From Patescibacteria group bacterium (lineage in GTDB: Bacteria; Patescibacteriota; UBA1384; 2-12-FULL-50-11), in contig BOKZ01000001.1 in NCBI GenBank assembly GCA_016861245.1, positions 415,746-479,745 on the forward strand: 64,000 nt of DNA. Direction: 5' to 3'. Below, in pieces: positions 1,902 to 57,722 of the stretch. How positions within the stretch are numbered: the first letter of the stretch is position 1; each line of letters opens with the position of its first letter. The translations under genes were made by a program, and so were the position numbers. The notes below the pieces were generated by a model, which saw nothing but the letters and a program-made list of their open reading frames with translations, had not been told where the DNA came from and did not search any database.

Positions 1902-3104
1902 ATGATTGATATCGCGTTACTTCGCAGTAAACCAGAAGAGATAAAAGAGACGTTAAAGAAGCGTAACGATAACCCCGATGTTGTCGACTCCTTATTAAAA
2001 CTTGATCTACAGTGGCGCACAACCGTACAAAAACTCGAGGCGTTGCAGGCTGAGCGAAACGGTCTCACTAAAACTAAACAGTCGGCCCAAGAGCATCGTT
2101 CGAGACTAGTAGCTTTGAAAAAGATGATCGATCAGGCGGAAGGCGAGGTACGCGAGTGTCAGCTTGAGTTGCACTCTGCCGTCTCGGTACTACCGAATAT
2201 ACTTGCGCCAGACGTACCAGTTGGTAAGGATGCTACGAGTAATAAAGTATTAGCTACCAACGGCAAAATTACAGTTAAAGACGGTCGGCCGCACGAGGAA
2301 ATAATGAAAGACCTTGGTTGGCTCGATCTAGAATCGGCCGCCAAAGCGAGCGGCGCACGTTTCCGTTATTTGATCGGTGAAGCGGCAAAAGCGCATCGAC
2401 AACTATTCACCACTGCAATCGCGTTCGCCGAGTCGAAAGGTTTCACCTACGTCGTGCCACCTGTAATTAGTCGCGGCGAGACGCTGCTTTCGACCGGATT
2501 CTTCCCGCGTGGTGCGGAAGATACGTTTCGGGTTGGGGACGATCAATACCTAGTTGGGACATCGGAGCCGATGTTACTAATGCTCGCGGCGAATAAAACG
2601 TATAACCAGAGCGATTTACCGAAGCGCTTCGTTGGTTACTCAAGTTGTTTCCGTAAAGAGGCCGGTTCGTACGGTCGTGACGTTAAGGGAATGTTTCGCA
2701 TGCACCAATTTGACAAAGTAGAGCTAGTTTCGATCTGCCACCCGGACGACTCAGAAAAAGAGCACGAGCTTATCGTTTCTATGCAGGAAGAGTTTGTCTC
2801 GCGTTTCAATCTTCCATATCAAAAAGTATTGCTATCGAGCGGCGACCAAAGCCATATCGCAATGAAGCAAATCGATATCGAAACATGGTTTCCGTCGCAA
2901 GGTCAGTACCGCGAAACCCATTCGGCGAGTAACTGCGGTGATTTTCAGGCACGGTTGCTGAAAACAAAAGTTTCAGACGGTCGAACGATCGTACTCGCAC
3001 ACACGCTAAACGGTACCCTAGCGACAGAACGCCTACTTTTAGCAATTATCGAGAATAACCAAGAAGAAGACGGTACTGTCAACCTTCCGAGTGAACTCAA
3101 GTAA
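1902..3104 (+). CDS. serS: Seryl-tRNA synthetase (class II).
   Basis: 400 aa. Has an N-terminal coiled-coil arm and class II motifs (FRKEAGSYGRDVKGMFRMHQFDKVE; GTLATERLLLAIIEN). Confidence 0.9.
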   Translation: MIDIALLRSKPEEIKETLKKRNDNPDVVDSLLKLDLQWRTTVQKLEALQAERNGLTKTKQSAQEHRSRLVALKKMIDQAEGEVRECQLELHSAVSVLPNILAPDVPVGKDATSNKVLATNGKITVKDGRPHEEIMKDLGWLDLESAAKASGARFRYLIGEAAKAHRQLFTTAIAFAESKGFTYVVPPVISRGETLLSTGFFPRGAEDTFRVGDDQYLVGTSEPMLLMLAANKTYNQSDLPKRFVGYSSCFRKEAGSYGRDVKGMFRMHQFDKVELVSICHPDDSEKEHELIVSMQEEFVSRFNLPYQKVLLSSGDQSHIAMKQIDIETWFPSQGQYRETHSASNCGDFQARLLKTKVSDGRTIVLAHTLNGTLATERLLLAIIENNQEEDGTVNLPSELK

Positions 3105-3108
3105 TTTA

Positions 3109-5694
3109 ATGGGGTTTTTTCAAAAAATTTTTGGTGACCCAAACGAGAAAGAAGTCAGCAAATACCAGAAGATTGTTGACGAAGTTAACGCGTTCGAACC
3201 AGGCCTCGAGAAGAAAACGGATGCAGAGTTGCGCAAACAGTCGCTTGAGCTGCGCGACAAGATCAGAACGGCAGTGACTACTGTAATTGCCGAAACTGAG
3301 CCTATTCCTGACCGCGTTGAACAAAATACAACTCGTAAAAAATTAATAAACAAGATACTTGAACCAGAATTAGCATGTGCTTTTGCTTTAGTTAGAGAGG
3401 CGTCTAAACGAACACTCGGATTGCGACATTATGATGTTCAAATTATAGGTGGCGTCGTTCTCCATCAAGGGCAGATCGCCGAGATGCAAACGGGAGAAGG
3501 TAAGACGCTAGTCGCGACGTTGCCGCTTTATCTTAATGCATTAACAGGACTTGGTGTTCACTTGGTTACGGTCAACGATTACCTCGCCCGACGTGACGCG
3601 GGGTGGATGAGTCAAATTTACGACTTTCTTGGGTTAACAGTTGGTGTAATCGGACCGCAGTTTTCTTTTATCTACGATTCCTCTTTCGATAACGGCGAGA
3701 ATGATTGGAGACTTCAGCGGCTGCGCCCAGTCGAGCGTCGCGAAGCGTACGCTGCCGACATCACCTACGGCACAAACAACGAGTACGGATTCGACTACCT
3801 TCGCGATAACATGCTTCAAGACGCAAATCAGCTTGTACAAAGAGAATTAGCATATGCTATCGTGGATGAAGTAGATTCAATTTTAATTGATGAAGCTCGA
3901 ACGCCGTTGATAATCTCGGCACCATCTTCAGAATCAGCTGGCTATTATAAAGAATTTGCCAAACATGTTAAAACATTAAAACCACAGACAGACTTTATCG
4001 TAGATGAAAAAGCCAAAAGCGCAGCGCTAACCAATGAAGGAATACAGAAACTGGAAAAAGCAGCCGGTGTCAGCAACCTATACGATCCTTCAAACGCTCA
4101 ACTTGTTCATTACGCCGACACAAGCTTAAAAGCATATGCTTTATTTAAGAAGAATAAAGATTACGTGGTTAAAGACGGACAAATAGTTATCGTTGATGAA
4201 TTTACTGGGCGGTTACTGCACGGGCGTCGATACTCAAGTGGACTTCACCAGGCGATTGAAGCTAAAGAAGGGGTGATAGTTCAAGAGGAGTCGGTTACGC
4301 TCGCTACGATTACCTTTCAAAACTACTTCCGACTCTACTTTAAGCTTGCCGGTATGACCGGAACAGCAAGCACGGAAGCAGAAGAATTCTCGAAGATTTA
4401 CCACCTAGAAGTTGTTTCGATACCGACAAATCGGCCGTCGCAGCGACGCGATTTAGCTGATGTAGTATATAAAACTGAGAGAGCAAAATTTAAGGCCGTA
4501 GCGGAATTAGTTCGGGAGTTGCAGCAAAACGGTCAACCAGTGTTAATTGGGACAGTCTCGATCGCCAAATCTGAAACGATCAGTAAACTACTGAAAAGCG
4601 AAAAAATCGAGCACCGCGTTCTTAACGCTAAATTTCACCAAAAAGAAGGCGAGATCGTAGCCGAAGCCGGACTGCCTGGGTCGGTAACGGTTGCAACTAA
4701 TATGGCTGGTCGTGGCGTCGACATCGTACTGGGCGGTCCGCCGCCGTCGAGCGACGCGCCCAAACAAGAATTTACGATCTGGGAGAAACGACACCAAGAG
4801 ATATTGGAAAGAGGGGGATTATACGTAATTGGTACCGAACGACACGAGTCGCGACGTATCGACAACCAGCTGCGCGGTCGAGCCGGCCGTCAAGGCGACC
4901 CAGGTGTTAGTCAGTTCTTTGTCTCGATGGAAGACGATTTAATGCGAATTTTCGGCGGCGATCGAATGAAGGCGATTATGGAGCGTCTCAACATCCCAGA
5001 AGACCTAAGTATCAATAACAAACTTCTCTCAAGGGCAATCGAACAAGCCCAGTCAAAGGTGGAGACACACAACTTCGATATTCGTAAACAACTAGTTGAA
5101 TACGACGACGTTATGAACAAGCATCGCGAAGCGATCTATCGGCGTCGAGAGCGGATAGTCCGATCAACGTTTAGCGACGAAGCGGCCATCGAATTTCACG
5201 ATGAGCTAGTACAGCTTTTCACTGAAGAGCAGCAAAAGTCGTACGAAGCTCGTTCGAAAGATTGGGGGACGCAGCTGAGATTTGAAGTTGAGCGAGCAGT
5301 AGTACTGCGCGCTATCGACGTACTCTGGGTTGAACATCTTAAAAACCTCGAAGATTTACGTGAGAGTATCGGGTTACAAGCGTACGGTCAGCGTGAACCG
5401 CTCGTAGAATATAAACAACAAGCCTACCGAATCTTTTCTGAGCTCCAAGATACGATTAATCGACAAATTGTTGAAATGCTTCTACACGTCAATGTCGGTT
5501 CTGCGCCCCCAGAGCAGCAGACGAATCAGAGGGTGGCGTACAATAAGCAAGAAGAAGTTACCCAGCCCCAAAGCCAAACAAACAAAATCGGTCGAAACGA
5601 TCCGTGCCCGTGCGGAGCGATCGACCCAGTGACAGGTAAGGTCTACAAGTATAAAAAATGCGGCTTAATTAACGCGCCGCATCACCGTCAGTAG
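3109..5694 (+). CDS. secA: Preprotein translocase ATPase SecA. The likely start is MGFFQKIFG at 3109; the ORF-track start at 3091 overlaps serS.
   Basis: Has a DEAD-like motor (GEGKTLVATLPLYLNAL, DEVDSILIDEARTPLIIS) and a C-terminal zinc finger (CPCGA...KKCG). Confidence 0.93.
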   Translation: MGFFQKIFGDPNEKEVSKYQKIVDEVNAFEPGLEKKTDAELRKQSLELRDKIRTAVTTVIAETEPIPDRVEQNTTRKKLINKILEPELACAFALVREASKRTLGLRHYDVQIIGGVVLHQGQIAEMQTGEGKTLVATLPLYLNALTGLGVHLVTVNDYLARRDAGWMSQIYDFLGLTVGVIGPQFSFIYDSSFDNGENDWRLQRLRPVERREAYAADITYGTNNEYGFDYLRDNMLQDANQLVQRELAYAIVDEVDSILIDEARTPLIISAPSSESAGYYKEFAKHVKTLKPQTDFIVDEKAKSAALTNEGIQKLEKAAGVSNLYDPSNAQLVHYADTSLKAYALFKKNKDYVVKDGQIVIVDEFTGRLLHGRRYSSGLHQAIEAKEGVIVQEESVTLATITFQNYFRLYFKLAGMTGTASTEAEEFSKIYHLEVVSIPTNRPSQRRDLADVVYKTERAKFKAVAELVRELQQNGQPVLIGTVSIAKSETISKLLKSEKIEHRVLNAKFHQKEGEIVAEAGLPGSVTVATNMAGRGVDIVLGGPPPSSDAPKQEFTIWEKRHQEILERGGLYVIGTERHESRRIDNQLRGRAGRQGDPGVSQFFVSMEDDLMRIFGGDRMKAIMERLNIPEDLSINNKLLSRAIEQAQSKVETHNFDIRKQLVEYDDVMNKHREAIYRRRERIVRSTFSDEAAIEFHDELVQLFTEEQQKSYEARSKDWGTQLRFEVERAVVLRAIDVLWVEHLKNLEDLRESIGLQAYGQREPLVEYKQQAYRIFSELQDTINRQIVEMLLHVNVGSAPPEQQTNQRVAYNKQEEVTQPQSQTNKIGRNDPCPCGAIDPVTGKVYKYKKCGLINAPHHRQ

Positions 5695-17438: not shown

Positions 17439-17489
17439 CTTCTTCACAGCTCGACTATTTTTCAGTAGAATTAACTGGTTAATTAGCCA

Positions 17490-17561
17490 GGCGCCCGTAG
17501 CTCAGCGGTAGAGCACTTCCTTGACGTGGAAGGGGTCTTCAGTTCGATCCTGAACGGGCGC
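17490..17561 (+). tRNA. tRNA-Val (anticodon GAC).
   Basis: GCGCCCG-TA-GCTCAGCGGTAGAGC-A-CTTCC-TTGACGT-GGAAG-GGGTC-TTCAGTTCGATCCTGAA-CGGGCGC-A. Confidence 0.8.
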
Positions 17562-17613
17562 ACATGACAAATATAAAAAATATTAAAGAGAGGGAGGGCG
17601 ACGTTAGTCGACT

Positions 17614-17631
17614 ATCCTGAACGGGCGCACA
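17614..17631 (+). repeat. 18-nt direct duplicate of the tRNA-Val 3' end (ATCCTGAACGGGCGCACA), 67 bp downstream of the original copy (17547-17564).
   Basis: Exact 18/18 match. Both copies are immediately followed by ATG. The second copy abuts the ppiB start codon. Confidence 0.7.
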
Positions 17632-18210
17632 ATGAAAATCACACATATTATTATCGGTGTTATAGCGGTAGCGGGTGTATTTTTACTAATTCCGCAATCA
17701 GAAAATAAACAAGGAGGCGTTAAAAAAATGACAGGCGATCCAACAACTTTTGAACAAGTTTCTGCAACAAAAGCGACGATCAAAACCGAAAAAGGCGAGA
17801 TCCAGCTCGAGCTTTACCCTCAAGATGCGCCAAAAACGGTGACAAACTTTGCAACGCTAGCTAAAAACGGTTTCTACGACGGTTTAACATTTCACCGTGT
17901 TGAGCCAGGCTTTGTTATCCAGGGTGGCGATCCGGACGGCAACGGTACCGGCGGAGTCTCAATTTACGGATCAGAGTTCGAAGATGAACTAAACGAGGAC
18001 ACGCCGTCGTATAAAAATGGGTACAAAGAAGGTGTGCTGGCTATGGCTAATCGCGGGCCAAATACCAATAGCAGTCAGTTTTTCATTATGCTCGCCGACA
18101 ACGACTCGTTACCAAAAAATTACACAATTTTCGGGAAGGTGACTACCGGAATGGATGTAGTAAAGAACATTGCTGTCGGTGACGTTTTGCTTTCAATTAC
18201 TGCAGAATAA
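17632..18210 (+). CDS. ppiB: Cyclophilin-type peptidyl-prolyl cis-trans isomerase, membrane-anchored/secreted.
   Basis: FHRVEPGFVIQGGDPDGNGTGG and SMANRGPNTNSSQFFI motifs. N-terminal TM helix. Confidence 0.85.
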   Translation: MKITHIIIGVIAVAGVFLLIPQSENKQGGVKKMTGDPTTFEQVSATKATIKTEKGEIQLELYPQDAPKTVTNFATLAKNGFYDGLTFHRVEPGFVIQGGDPDGNGTGGVSIYGSEFEDELNEDTPSYKNGYKEGVLAMANRGPNTNSSQFFIMLADNDSLPKNYTIFGKVTTGMDVVKNIAVGDVLLSITAE

Positions 18211-33579: not shown

Positions 33580-34404
33580 ATGAAGTACACAATCAAGAAC
33601 TTTCGTAACGATTTCCCAAATGATGACGTTTGCCTGGAGTATATTTTCAAGCAAAAATACCCTGACTTAGTGAGTAAATTTTATCGTGTAAAAGGCAGAA
33701 AGTGTTTTGCCAATACTGTCGGTGACCAAATTCACCCACTCAAGAAAACTATCTTTGAAAAGTCCAGTACGCCCCTGACTGATTGGCTGTATGCAATCTA
33801 TCTGTTTTCGGCTTCTAAGAACGGGGTTTCCGCTAAGGAGCTAGAACGTCAGCTAGGGGTTACTTATAAGTGTGCCTGGCGTATCTGCAATCAAATCCGC
33901 AAGCTAATGACCGAAGATAATGAAAAGTTAAGCGGCGAAGTCGAAGTAGACGAAACCTATGTGGGCGGTAAGTCTGTGAATAGTCGAAATAAGAAACGTA
34001 CTATCGGCGATAAAGCGGTGGTTTTCGGTGCAGTTGAGCGAGAGGGCCGAGTAAAAGCCAAACACGTAATCAGTTCAGGTGCGAGAGTACTTCTGCCGGA
34101 GATTGCCCGAACCGTTGAGAAAGCTACGAAGATTTACTCGGACGAGTGGGGTTCATACAAGAGACTAGCCGTGCTCGGCTATTCGCACGGATCGGTTAAT
34201 CACCGAGAAAACGAGTACTCCAAAGACGGTATTCACACCAATACGATTGAGGGCTTCTGGAGCCAATTAAAACGATCAATTAACGGAACTTACCACGTGG
34301 TTAGTCCGAAGTATCTCCAGCTTTACGTTGATGAGTTTGCTTTTCGCTATAATCACCGACAACTTGCTCGTCCGCTTTTTGCGGAGCTGGTTGCTCGGGT
34401 TTAG
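33580..34404 (+). mobile_element. IS1595-family (ISXO2-like DDE) transposase, likely a decaying copy.
   Basis: The conserved block TPLTDWLYAIYLFSASKNGVSAKELERQLGVTYKCAW...LSGEVEVDETYVGG...HTNTIEGFWSQLKR matches the IS1595 DDE_Tnp pattern. The N-terminal zinc-ribbon cysteines are mostly missing. No clear terminal inverted repeats were found. Confidence 0.7.
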
Positions 34405-52250: not shown

Positions 52251-52296
52251 CTATTTTATGGAAAAAAACAGGTTTGTACTGTAAAATTATCACATT

Positions 52297-52370
52297 GCGC
52301 CTGTAGCTCAGCGGATTAGAGTACTTGTCTTCGGAACAAGGGGTCGCAGGTTCGAATCCTGCCAGGCGCG
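52297..52370 (+). tRNA. tRNA-Arg (anticodon TCG).
   Basis: GCGCCTG-TA-GCTCAGCGGATTAGAGT-A-CTTGT-CTTCGGA-ACAAG-GGGTC-GCAGGTTCGAATCCTGC-CAGGCGC-G. Confidence 0.75.
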
Positions 52371-52426
52371 CAGTAGAAAAAAACAATTAACTAAATTATG
52401 ATCGACTCAGATCCAGGAGGATTTAC

Positions 52427-56491: not shown

Positions 56492-56563
56492 GGGGCATTA
56501 GTTCAGTGGCAGAACAACGGACTCTTAATCCGTGTGTCAGTGGTTCGAATCCACTATGCCCCA
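56492..56563 (+). tRNA. tRNA-Lys (anticodon CTT).
   Basis: GGGGCAT-TA-GTTCAGTGGCAGAAC-A-ACGGA-CTCTTAA-TCCGT-GTGTC-AGTGGTTCGAATCCACT-ATGCCCC-A. Confidence 0.75.
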
Positions 56564-56633
56564 CAGAGTAAATTCGAACCAGTTCGACTGCGACTCGCCG
56601 AACGGCGAGGAGAAGTACTGAGCGAAGCTCAGT

Positions 56634-56650
56634 AATCCACTATGCCCACC
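56634..56650 (+). repeat. Direct duplicate of the tRNA-Lys 3' end (AATCCACTATGCCC plus CAC/ACC), about 70 bp downstream of the tRNA.
   Basis: 14/14 identical core plus similar flanks. This is the same arrangement as at tRNA-Val. Confidence 0.6.
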
Positions 56651-56752
56651 ATTAAATACTGTTAATAACCGTTGATATACTACTAATGGCGGAGTATAAT
56701 TTGCTCCACTCCTGGTTCAACCAGGCGTAGATTACATACAGGAGGTTAACAT

Positions 56753-57688
56753 GTGGTGGAAAAGCTCCCCAGAATCGTAGTTGAGAAGCAAGGGTCGCAT
56801 TCCGAAAACCCGCCGAAGGGTATCGAAGTGCCGATCCGTGACGCATTAGCGCGTCACGGCTTCACGGAAGGTTGCTGGTGCATGAAAGTTCGCATGGTGC
56901 ATGCTCGAGGCGAAAGCCATAGCTACCGCGGTGCGCACTTCAAGGGCCTTCGGAATTACGCTCGTGCTCGTAACGTCATCGACGTTGTGTCACAGCCGGG
57001 CGCCGCACATACGGCTTTCCTAGCAGACCTGATTGTGCCGGACTGTTACGACGCAACTCACGTTCTCAACACGGTTCGACAGATCAACACCCTTGATCCG
57101 AACAAAGACGAGGACCTGGAGATGCTCAAGAAAGCATCGCAGTTCGACGTCGGCGCTTCTGCTAAGAGGCGCAGCAACGAACCCATCGCGTCAGTCCGTC
57201 GAAGCAACGAAGCGCGCCAACAAAGGATCGCTAAGTTCCTCGGTAAGCCAAAAAACATCGACGCAGTCGGAGTAGTGATCCAGCGAGAATCTCTCAACGG
57301 TTCTGTTCCGATCAGCGTCCTGGATAAGGCGATCCGGGAAACGCTGCCGTTTCAAATCTCAAGAGATGAGCTGGCGAGTACGCGAGCGATCTTCGTGTTG
57401 AATGAGGATCTTTTGCAGCCGGGTGATGGCGTGTACCACCTTTCCGAACGCGGCCAACTCTGGATCGAGAGCTTACGTCAGCGTGAGCGCGACAACGAAG
57501 CGTTAGCGCAGCAAATGCAGCAGCAGCTTCTTCGGCGGCAGCTTCAGAAATGCGAACGCAGCCTTCGACAGTTCGACGAACGGGTTGAGGCCGAGCGATT
57601 AGCGAGGCTCGAGACTATCCAACAACTCAAGTCACAGCTCGGGATCTTCGAGCAAGGAAGTGAAGAACATGTATTGGTGTTGAGCTAA
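56753..57688 (+). CDS. Hypothetical protein, GC-rich, with a C-terminal Gln/Arg-rich coiled-coil. GTG start with a GGAGG RBS.
   Basis: 311 aa. GGAGG 7 nt upstream of GTG. C-terminal ALAQQMQQQLLRRQLQKCERSLRQFDERVEAERLARLE. Confidence 0.4.
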   Translation: MVEKLPRIVVEKQGSHSENPPKGIEVPIRDALARHGFTEGCWCMKVRMVHARGESHSYRGAHFKGLRNYARARNVIDVVSQPGAAHTAFLADLIVPDCYDATHVLNTVRQINTLDPNKDEDLEMLKKASQFDVGASAKRRSNEPIASVRRSNEARQQRIAKFLGKPKNIDAVGVVIQRESLNGSVPISVLDKAIRETLPFQISRDELASTRAIFVLNEDLLQPGDGVYHLSERGQLWIESLRQRERDNEALAQQMQQQLLRRQLQKCERSLRQFDERVEAERLARLETIQQLKSQLGIFEQGSEEHVLVLS

Positions 57689-57694
57689 CACAAA

Positions 57695-57722
57695 GCCCCA
57701 GCTAGTCTGGGGCGTTTATTTT
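57695..57722. terminator. Bidirectional terminator GCCCCA-GCTAGTC-TGGGGC-GTTTATTTT between convergent genes.
   Basis: 6-bp GC stem, flanked by an A-rich run on one side and a T-rich run on the other. Confidence 0.6.

Follow-up and report, generated by a model that had tools for sequence, protein, structure and literature searches.

Att-like insertion footprints at the 3' ends of tRNA-Val and tRNA-Lys genes in a Patescibacteria genome and its relatives

Within a 64-kb stretch of a Patescibacteria genome of apparently ~685 kb (hereafter the window), Saccharibacteria-like to judge by the genes around the two loci and the best related contigs, two intact tRNA genes, for tRNA-Val(GAC) at 17491-17563 and for tRNA-Lys(CTT) at 56492-56564, are each followed on their 3' side by a same-orientation fragment of their own 3' end. 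Both genes, which like all features of the two loci given below lie on the plus strand, were identified by ARAGORN and Rfam; CCA is not encoded in tRNA-Val. At the Val locus, the 18-mer ATCCTGAACGGGCGCACA, which covers the tRNA from A58 in the T loop to the discriminator and continues with CA, occurs exactly twice in the window, as copy 1 (DR1, 17547-17564) and copy 2 (DR2, 17614-17631). This bears out a preliminary description of this DNA, which had reported an exact 18-nt copy of the tRNA-Val 3' end 67 bp downstream and had placed the second copy against the start of ppiB: copy 2 abuts the ATG at 17632 that opens the gene of a cyclophilin-type peptidyl-prolyl isomerase (PPIase) with an N-terminal membrane helix (17632-18210). 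That both copies are followed by ATG, as was also claimed, holds directly for copy 2 only, since copy 1 overlaps its ATG (CAC-ATG), the final A of the repeat being the A of ATG. When one indel is allowed, the similarity at Val extends beyond the tRNA (CACA-TGAcAAAT vs. CACAATGAaAAT). At the Lys locus, the 14-mer AATCCACTATGCCC starts at A58 of the tRNA and also occurs twice, at 56548-56561 (tRNA A58 to position 71) and at 56634-56647, in a copy that is short of one C in the acceptor run and is followed by ACCA. The Lys repeat that had been described is thus present, with its measures revised: copy 1 ends at 56561, and the copies are separated by 72 nt and lie 86 nt apart from start to start.

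These repeats are specific to the tRNA ends. No third ATCCTGAACGGGCGCACA site was found in the window even with up to three mismatches, and none of 100 shuffles had two matches at the same tolerance. When direct repeats (at least 13 nt, at most 300 nt apart) were sought throughout the window, four families emerged, among which the Val pair and the Lys pair are the only perfect ones (perfect over at least 14 nt). Their tie to tRNA 3' ends is consequently not due to chance, which the shuffles and the scan together rule out. Such a 3'-end copy was not found at the other four tRNAs of the window. An assembly artefact is likewise ruled out, the same structures being present in independent assemblies (L001 for Val, L143 for Lys, and L218; labels of this form denote loci of related genomes). 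Over five loci, the left boundaries of the repeats fall at tRNA positions 56-61, while their right boundaries lie 1-10 nt beyond the discriminator.

Relatives, gathered by protein search and contig look-ups, present both occupied and empty versions of exactly these sites, the comparison that the preliminary description had called for. The leader conserved in all relatives, which it had named as the alternative, is at odds with the existence of empty sites. (A metagenome scan with the DedA protein returned distant loci only, all without the tRNA.) The Val site is empty in six genomes, where tRNA-Val abuts the cyclophilin ATG, which lies 1-4 nt past the discriminator. The bases in between are C in L217 (989-993), CA in L002 (2977-2982), CCA in L003 (2989-2995), CGA in L004 (2985-2991), CAA in L222 (1497-1503), and CTAG in L219 (1497-1504); the corresponding region of the window, with its insert, is 17562-17634. 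The empty junction thus reads tRNA...GCGCA(N1-4)ATG and matches the junction formed by copy 2 and its flank, which is the case for Val only. The site is occupied in three genomes, the window, L001 (PPIase 93% identical to that of the window, DNA 85%), and L218 (85% identical), and the alignment of occupied with empty sites shows a clean insertion of 64-67 nt. Occupied L218 and empty L217 are 92% identical in DNA over both flanks. In L218, the exact repeat is 22 nt long (TCCAAGTGGGCGCACATGAAAA), or 25-26 nt when the tRNA of L217, its empty relative, is taken for the comparison, and it includes the first seven bases of the cyclophilin gene, start codon and all (ATGAAAA). Since both this repeat and the similarity in the window run into the cyclophilin start, the duplicated unit at Val is the junction between tRNA end and gene start.

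At the Lys locus, for which the relatives are DedA homologues and their contigs, an insert that we call type A, together with a copy of the tRNA-Lys 3' end, is present in the window, L138, and L141, with insert lengths of 72-130 bp. L147 and L148 carry a different insert and a decayed copy that extends back to the 5' strand of the T stem; in L147, this degenerate copy has the T loop as well (GCGGTTCG...). L145, L146, and L223 are empty and have no copy. Their downstream DNA differs, so that the identity of empty junction and copy 2 seen at Val does not extend to them. Between L138 and L223, an identity of 95.4% ends exactly with the 3' end of tRNA-Lys, past which the two are unrelated. More generally, unrelated gene sets follow tRNA-Lys (or copy 2) in each genome examined, and no homology was found among the variable regions of different genomes (window 56565-57720; L138 3212-3440; L141 3214-4680; L146 1113-2200; L147 1092-2237; L223 2094-2520). 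The stretch from tRNA-Lys to the conserved gene that comes next is therefore a hypervariable spot. This agrees with the earlier proposal of an integration hot spot, but conserved anchors around an accessory region would give the same picture.

As for the DNA between the copies, insert lengths over the examined loci are about 40-130 bp, and the copies lie 67-145 bp apart. The 49-nt Val insert of the window (17565-17613), missing in the six related genomes above, is A/T-rich at first, then purine-rich (GAGAGGGAGGG), and ends in a predicted hairpin with a GUUA loop (17592-17618), in which the purine tract is paired with the first bases of copy 2. All three Val inserts have one predicted hairpin directly upstream of copy 2, with differing stem sequences; for the analogous hairpins of L001 and L218, as for that of the window, the Val z-scores are weak (-1.3 to -1.5). 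The 72-nt Lys insert (56562-56633) folds into three predicted hairpins (56574-56587, 56594-56609, and 56616-56634), and Lys inserts are more stable than shuffled sequences (z = -3.2, -2.1, and -2.6). Within a locus, the inserts are related: the Lys insert of the window is homologous to that of L138 (z = 8.8), with which it is colinear throughout, and to that of L141 (p = 0.004), and the Val inserts of the window and L218 are similar as well (p = 0.011). Between the two loci of the window, similarity is not significant (p = 0.68), and an element family common to Val and Lys is not supported. The Val insert does resemble the Lys insert of L141, with its GTTA-loop hairpin, at p = 0.045 among 14 tests. 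Neither the window nor ~0.9 Mb of related loci yielded a further copy of either insert. With the Rfam 15 covariance models, only tRNAs and the transfer-messenger RNA (tmRNA) scored above threshold, and the inserts had no match at E values up to 10.

The Val locus harbors further features that touch on the insert. An ORF (open reading frame) of 18 codons (MTNIKNIKEREGDVSRLS, then stop; 17564-17620) runs from the duplicated ATG next to the tRNA to a TGA within copy 2; it is probably incidental, since the version in L218 is unrelated and has 13 codons. The 3' end of the insert together with the ATC of copy 2 (GGCGACGTTAGTCGACTATC, 17597-17616) matches the antisense strand of folD (59477-59458) at 19 of 20 bases, ATC being common at the junction. 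This match is equalled by only 1 of 1000 shuffled Val spacers, the folD segment is not conserved in relatives, and the match may be either a templated patch or a coincidence. On the other side of the tRNA, L217 (855-917) and L218 (584-646) have an insert of ~55 nt between the promoter and the tRNA-Val 5' end, which is missing from the window. It contains a degenerate copy of the tRNA 5' end (GCGCTTATCA vs. GCGCTCATAG) and an 11-bp palindrome (GAGCGCCAACA/TGTTGGCGCTC) overlapping the tRNA-Val 5' end, and it is a 5'-end counterpart to the 3' duplications.

The junction between tRNA-Val and the cyclophilin gene deserves attention in its own right. The sole promoter-like site upstream of tRNA-Val (TTCACA-17-TAGAAT, 17443-17471), whose hexamers are kept in relatives, would drive both genes, and no promoter-like or terminator-like site was found between tRNA-Val and the cyclophilin ORF. 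The N-terminal 32 residues of the cyclophilin form a hydrophobic helix with a GAFLLIP-type motif that is kept where the DNA has diverged, and most nucleotide changes between the window and L001 in this segment are synonymous. This conservation at the protein level indicates that the ATG beside tRNA-Val is a real start. No Shine-Dalgarno (SD) sequence was found before it. Together with its conservation, the layout of the tRNA-Val/ATG junction suggests that processing of the tRNA 3' end releases a leaderless mRNA; in the literature we found such tRNA-punctuated leaderless mRNAs described for organelles only, and none for bacteria. Within the cyclophilin ORF, a strong SD (AAGGAGG) with an in-frame ATG (Met33) at 17711-17730 is kept in L001, L217, L218, and L002; in addition to the long, membrane-anchored protein, the gene may yield a short cytoplasmic isoform (160 aa, the version annotated by several gene callers).

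The gene that follows the Lys repeat has no such link to its tRNA. The orphan ORF of 311 aa (56753-57688), which has no Pfam or PHROG match and for which no homologue was found in the related loci, being present in this genome only, is preceded by a strong promoter-like site of its own (TTGATA-17-TATAAT, 56672-56700) and is therefore independent of tRNA-Lys. Its position past copy 2 puts it outside the repeat pair. A further tRNA fragment, distal to these two, that would enclose the orphan gene was looked for and was found in none of the genomes examined. In L141, a terminator lies between tRNA-Lys and the insert. The bases that follow the tRNA and its copy appear swapped between two genomes: in the window, CAGAG follows tRNA-Lys (56562-56566) and CCATT follows the copy (56648-56652), while in L138 CCATT follows tRNA-Lys (3210-3215) and CAGAT the copy (3300-3304), which could reflect exchange between the two copies. 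Elsewhere in the window, tRNA-Arg(TCG) stands alone between two copies of a 10-nt direct repeat (GAAAAAAACA, 52261-52270 and 52376-52385, the whole spanning 52261-52385), and in relatives (L141 1360-1599; L148 868-1019) tRNA-Arg(TCG) is followed by tRNA-Arg(CCG).

An unexpected property of these loci is that the distal copy follows the tRNA it resembles. The tRNA-Val genes of the window and L218 differ at positions 60, 62, 63, 65, and 66, and copy 2 mirrors all five differences; the tRNA-Lys genes of the window and L141 differ at positions 59, 60, 65, and 69, and copy 2 mirrors all four. The sole exception to this mirroring is in L218, where copy 2 has T59, like the tRNA of L217, and the tRNA has G59; this is how a displaced original fragment would look. 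Copy 2 is also conserved at 18 of 18 positions between the window and L001, a degree of conservation that has a probability of ~0.05-0.1 under neutrality. With inserts that look orthologous, the co-variation can be read in three ways: the copies are homogenised, selection makes the distal copy match the tRNA, or the inserts were acquired independently from related sources. Maintenance of the distal copy is not universal, as it is clearly decayed in L147 and L148.

The repeat pairs are thus att-like insertion footprints at sites that vary between relatives. As to their origin, we tentatively favor the reading, in which our confidence is less than even, that they are eroded attL/attR scars of the integrase type that were inherited vertically, disappeared from some lineages, and were homogenised with the tRNA. 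In this reading, ~40-130 bp of DNA would have entered a tRNA gene in its 3' portion and duplicated the target, with the duplication extending from positions 56-61 in the T loop to slightly beyond the tRNA and, at Val, into the first cyclophilin codons. The occupied/empty polymorphism among relatives shows that insertion with target duplication took place. Because the target was duplicated, the tRNA would keep a complete 3' end and the downstream junction its original upstream sequence. The inserts would be the last gene-free remains of integrated elements with a deleted interior, as their geometry is that of attL/attR of tyrosine integrases crossing over in the T loop. Such scars may have been passed on vertically within this Saccharibacteria-like clade. 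Recombination of one copy with the other is a plausible route by which some lineages would have lost them, and recombination or conversion between the closely spaced copies may have kept the distal one identical to the tRNA. They are not the scars of excised islands that the preliminary description had also envisaged, since clean excision would leave one copy rather than two.

Several observations weigh against an integrase origin. The earlier attL/attR interpretation is borne out by the geometry and by the occupied and empty relatives, but not by the genes present: no integrase (Phage_integrase) was found between the copies or in the 28 ORFs around both loci, nor in ~18 related loci, and no cargo gene lies between the copies and no integrase or phage genes near the loci. 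There is thus no evidence of an active element or a nearby integrase in the examined loci. Among 2.9 million viral contigs (IMG/VR), no meaningful attP-like match was found, the 15- to 16-mer matches sitting in coding sequence or without tRNA context, in a database where phages of this clade may be poorly sampled. The inserts of the window (49 and 72 nt) are below a typical attP of about 250 bp, and as no larger remnant was seen anywhere, the inserts seem to be small as a rule and not as the last stage of decay. At Val, the duplication (22-26 nt in L218) takes in ATGAAAA from the cyclophilin gene, a sequence that the attP of the element would have to carry. No T-stem-like dyad, expected of a core-type integrase site, was seen to the left of copy 2. 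Finally, the distal copy tracks lineage-specific tRNA changes while the inserts have diverged by ~40-50%, so that an extra process must be assumed, because a dead scar should decay, as it has in L147 and L148. Two side observations were made in these searches. The only mobile-element gene among the 28 ORFs encodes a DDE transposase of the IS1595 family (ISXO2-like, 33580-34404), and no cas1 was seen among the ORFs examined. L203, a 184-kb IMG/VR contig with a nine-tRNA array, contains the 14-mer ATCCTGAACGGGCG, identical to the core of the Val repeat, twice on the minus strand (2873-2886 and 3049-3062), flanking tRNA-Gln(CTG), and has no tRNA-Val there.

The main rival of the integrase reading, which we consider unlikely, is a duplicative insertion made by template switching, an error of replication or repair. 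Synthesis would stall at the hairpin-prone T arm, switch to a locally inverted or a distant template, and return upstream through microhomology, leaving a short patchwork insert flanked by duplicated junction sequence. A duplication across a gene junction (tRNA end plus ATGAAAA), awkward for an attP, is natural for such a target duplication, and the inserts are tiny and gene-free everywhere. The ~55-nt insert at the tRNA-Val 5' end in L217 and L218, with its degenerate 5'-end copy, would fit the same process. Although the T arm recurs at the start of the Lys insert, inverted and imperfect (83% complementary over 18 nt), and does so in L138 too, this similarity is partly due to the palindrome TTCGAA and is not significant by shuffling. 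The folD match of the Val insert, with ATC common at the junction, is one match from many comparisons and is missing from the apparently homologous insert of L218, and the match of the Lys insert to another gene is not significant (p = 0.08). Moreover, errors of this kind would be expected anywhere, yet the two perfect short-range repeats of the window both begin in the T loop of a tRNA and cover its 3' end. A quite different proposal, which we regard as doubtful, takes the distal copy for a functional element that is maintained and imitates the 3' end of the tRNA. With the insert in place, copy 2 would keep the processing site intact by pairing, on the co-transcript, with the same 5' strands of the tRNA as the true 3' end, and tRNA-type processing at the cyclophilin ATG would cut out a leaderless mRNA, as it would in the relatives with an empty site; alternatively, the copy could be an RNA or DNA signal that must match the tRNA. 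A pairing requirement would make copy 2 co-vary with the tRNA, and the distal copy does follow lineage-specific changes although the surrounding inserts diverge. The 18/18 match to L001, against 85% identity overall, points the same way, but with a neutral probability of ~0.05-0.1. The predicted hairpin right before copy 2 in three Val inserts, with its differing stems, and the better-than-shuffled folding of the Lys inserts are also consistent with a function, as is the ancestral tRNA/ATG junction, which suggests that expression of the gene depends on the tRNA transcript. The copy is missing, however, from the close relatives L217 and L223 without visible compensation, and it has decayed in L147 and L148. 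At the Lys locus, no ORF abuts the copy, the terminator of L141 splits the tRNA from the insert, and the gene in the window has its own promoter. The lack of an Rfam match and the weak z-scores of the Val hairpins also speak against it.

Still more doubtful, in our view, is that each lineage independently received a miniature, non-autonomous mobile element. An enzyme acting in trans would move it and would duplicate the target at tRNA T loops over a long stretch of variable size (14-26 bp), so that the copies match the resident tRNA. Such an element would yield perfect repeats matching each genome's tRNA without gene conversion, and it would account for presence and absence between close relatives and for similar inserts across genomes at one locus. 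Yet the dissimilarity of the two inserts of the window and the lack of any other copy are not what would be expected of an element, and no terminal inverted repeats were found in the inserts, either by repeat analysis or by eye. The inserts of the window and L138 are colinear over their full length, as from descent and not re-insertion, and a candidate enzyme was not found, the only transposase seen being of the IS1595 type. A decayed tandem duplicate, either of the whole tRNA or of a block of tRNA end and gene start, with only the 3' end still recognisable, is very improbable. The 86-nt spacing at Lys is near that of one tRNA plus spacer, the degenerate copy of L147 extends to the T-stem 5' strand and the T loop, and TCAGT precedes both Lys copies in the window. 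The spacers, however, show no significant resemblance to the body of the tRNA, compared in both orientations, or to the region past copy 2 (Val, p = 0.19-0.97; Lys, best p = 0.037 and 0.007 among 15 tests), which argues against such duplicates, and the tRNA covariance model is silent on them at E values up to 10. The Val unit of 67 nt is, in addition, shorter than a tRNA.

If the repeat pairs are scars, they are relevant to gene annotation and to island finding, because tools that pair tRNAs with fragments discard anything below 2 kb and minimal remnants in the streamlined genomes of Patescibacteria go unseen. If the distal copy instead mimics the tRNA, tiny att-flanked inserts would be a persistent class of elements that co-evolve with tRNAs in reduced genomes. 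As insertion footprints, they are a modest variation on the known theme of tDNA fragments, and we rate two by-products of the analysis above them. One is the distal fragment that co-evolves with the tRNA: its identity to a changing tRNA points to either homogenisation over very short tracts, between copies 67-145 bp apart, or an unrecognised function. The other is the clade-wide tRNA-Val/ATG junction, where a start codon 1-4 nt after the tRNA would make a clear, testable bacterial case of tRNA punctuation, more interesting than the scars.

Tyrosine integrases that insert genomic islands cross over in the T loop or where the T and acceptor stems meet, the anticodon loop being a further known crossover site, and leave an intact tDNA with its 3' fragment displaced; damaged tDNA fragments with a small deletion near the discriminator have been noted among them; the filter of Islander rejects candidates below 2 kb, and a typical attP is about 250 bp (PMC4383910). 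Our loci share with these islands the intact tRNA, the same-orientation fragment reaching from the T loop to or past the 3' end, and the empty sites in relatives, and the Lys fragment, with its one-base deletion just before the discriminator, resembles the damaged ones. They differ from them in having only 49-130 bp between the copies, without integrase or cargo and with no attP partner found, in a repeat that runs into the codons of the next gene, and in a distal copy that co-evolves with the tRNA. We found no description of tRNA-fragment pairs with spacers below 150 bp in the literature.

Cis-mobilisable elements (CIMEs) are att-flanked derivatives of integrative elements that lack an integrase, and known ones are kilobases long and keep functional att arms. 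Like CIMEs, our inserts lack an integrase, are flanked by att-like direct repeats at a tRNA 3' end, and could serve as landing pads for further elements, but they are about ten times smaller, and a cognate integrase was not seen. Casposons make target-site duplications of 14-15 bp, some at tRNA 3' ends, and integration by Cas1-Cas2 duplicates the repeat. A long target duplication around the insert, at tRNA 3' ends or palindromic DNA, is common to these systems and to our loci; unlike them, our inserts have no terminal inverted repeats, the duplication is not fixed in length (14-26 nt), and inserts of 41-130 nt fit no ruler. As for the tRNA-Val/ATG junction, the nearest parallel is the tRNA punctuation of mitochondria. 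The junction, here read from sequence only, differs in being a free-standing bacterial locus with one gene and an internal SD and ATG as a conventional second start. Like mitochondrial punctuation, it combines a start codon lacking an SD, placed 1-4 nt past the tRNA, with one promoter-like site for both genes.

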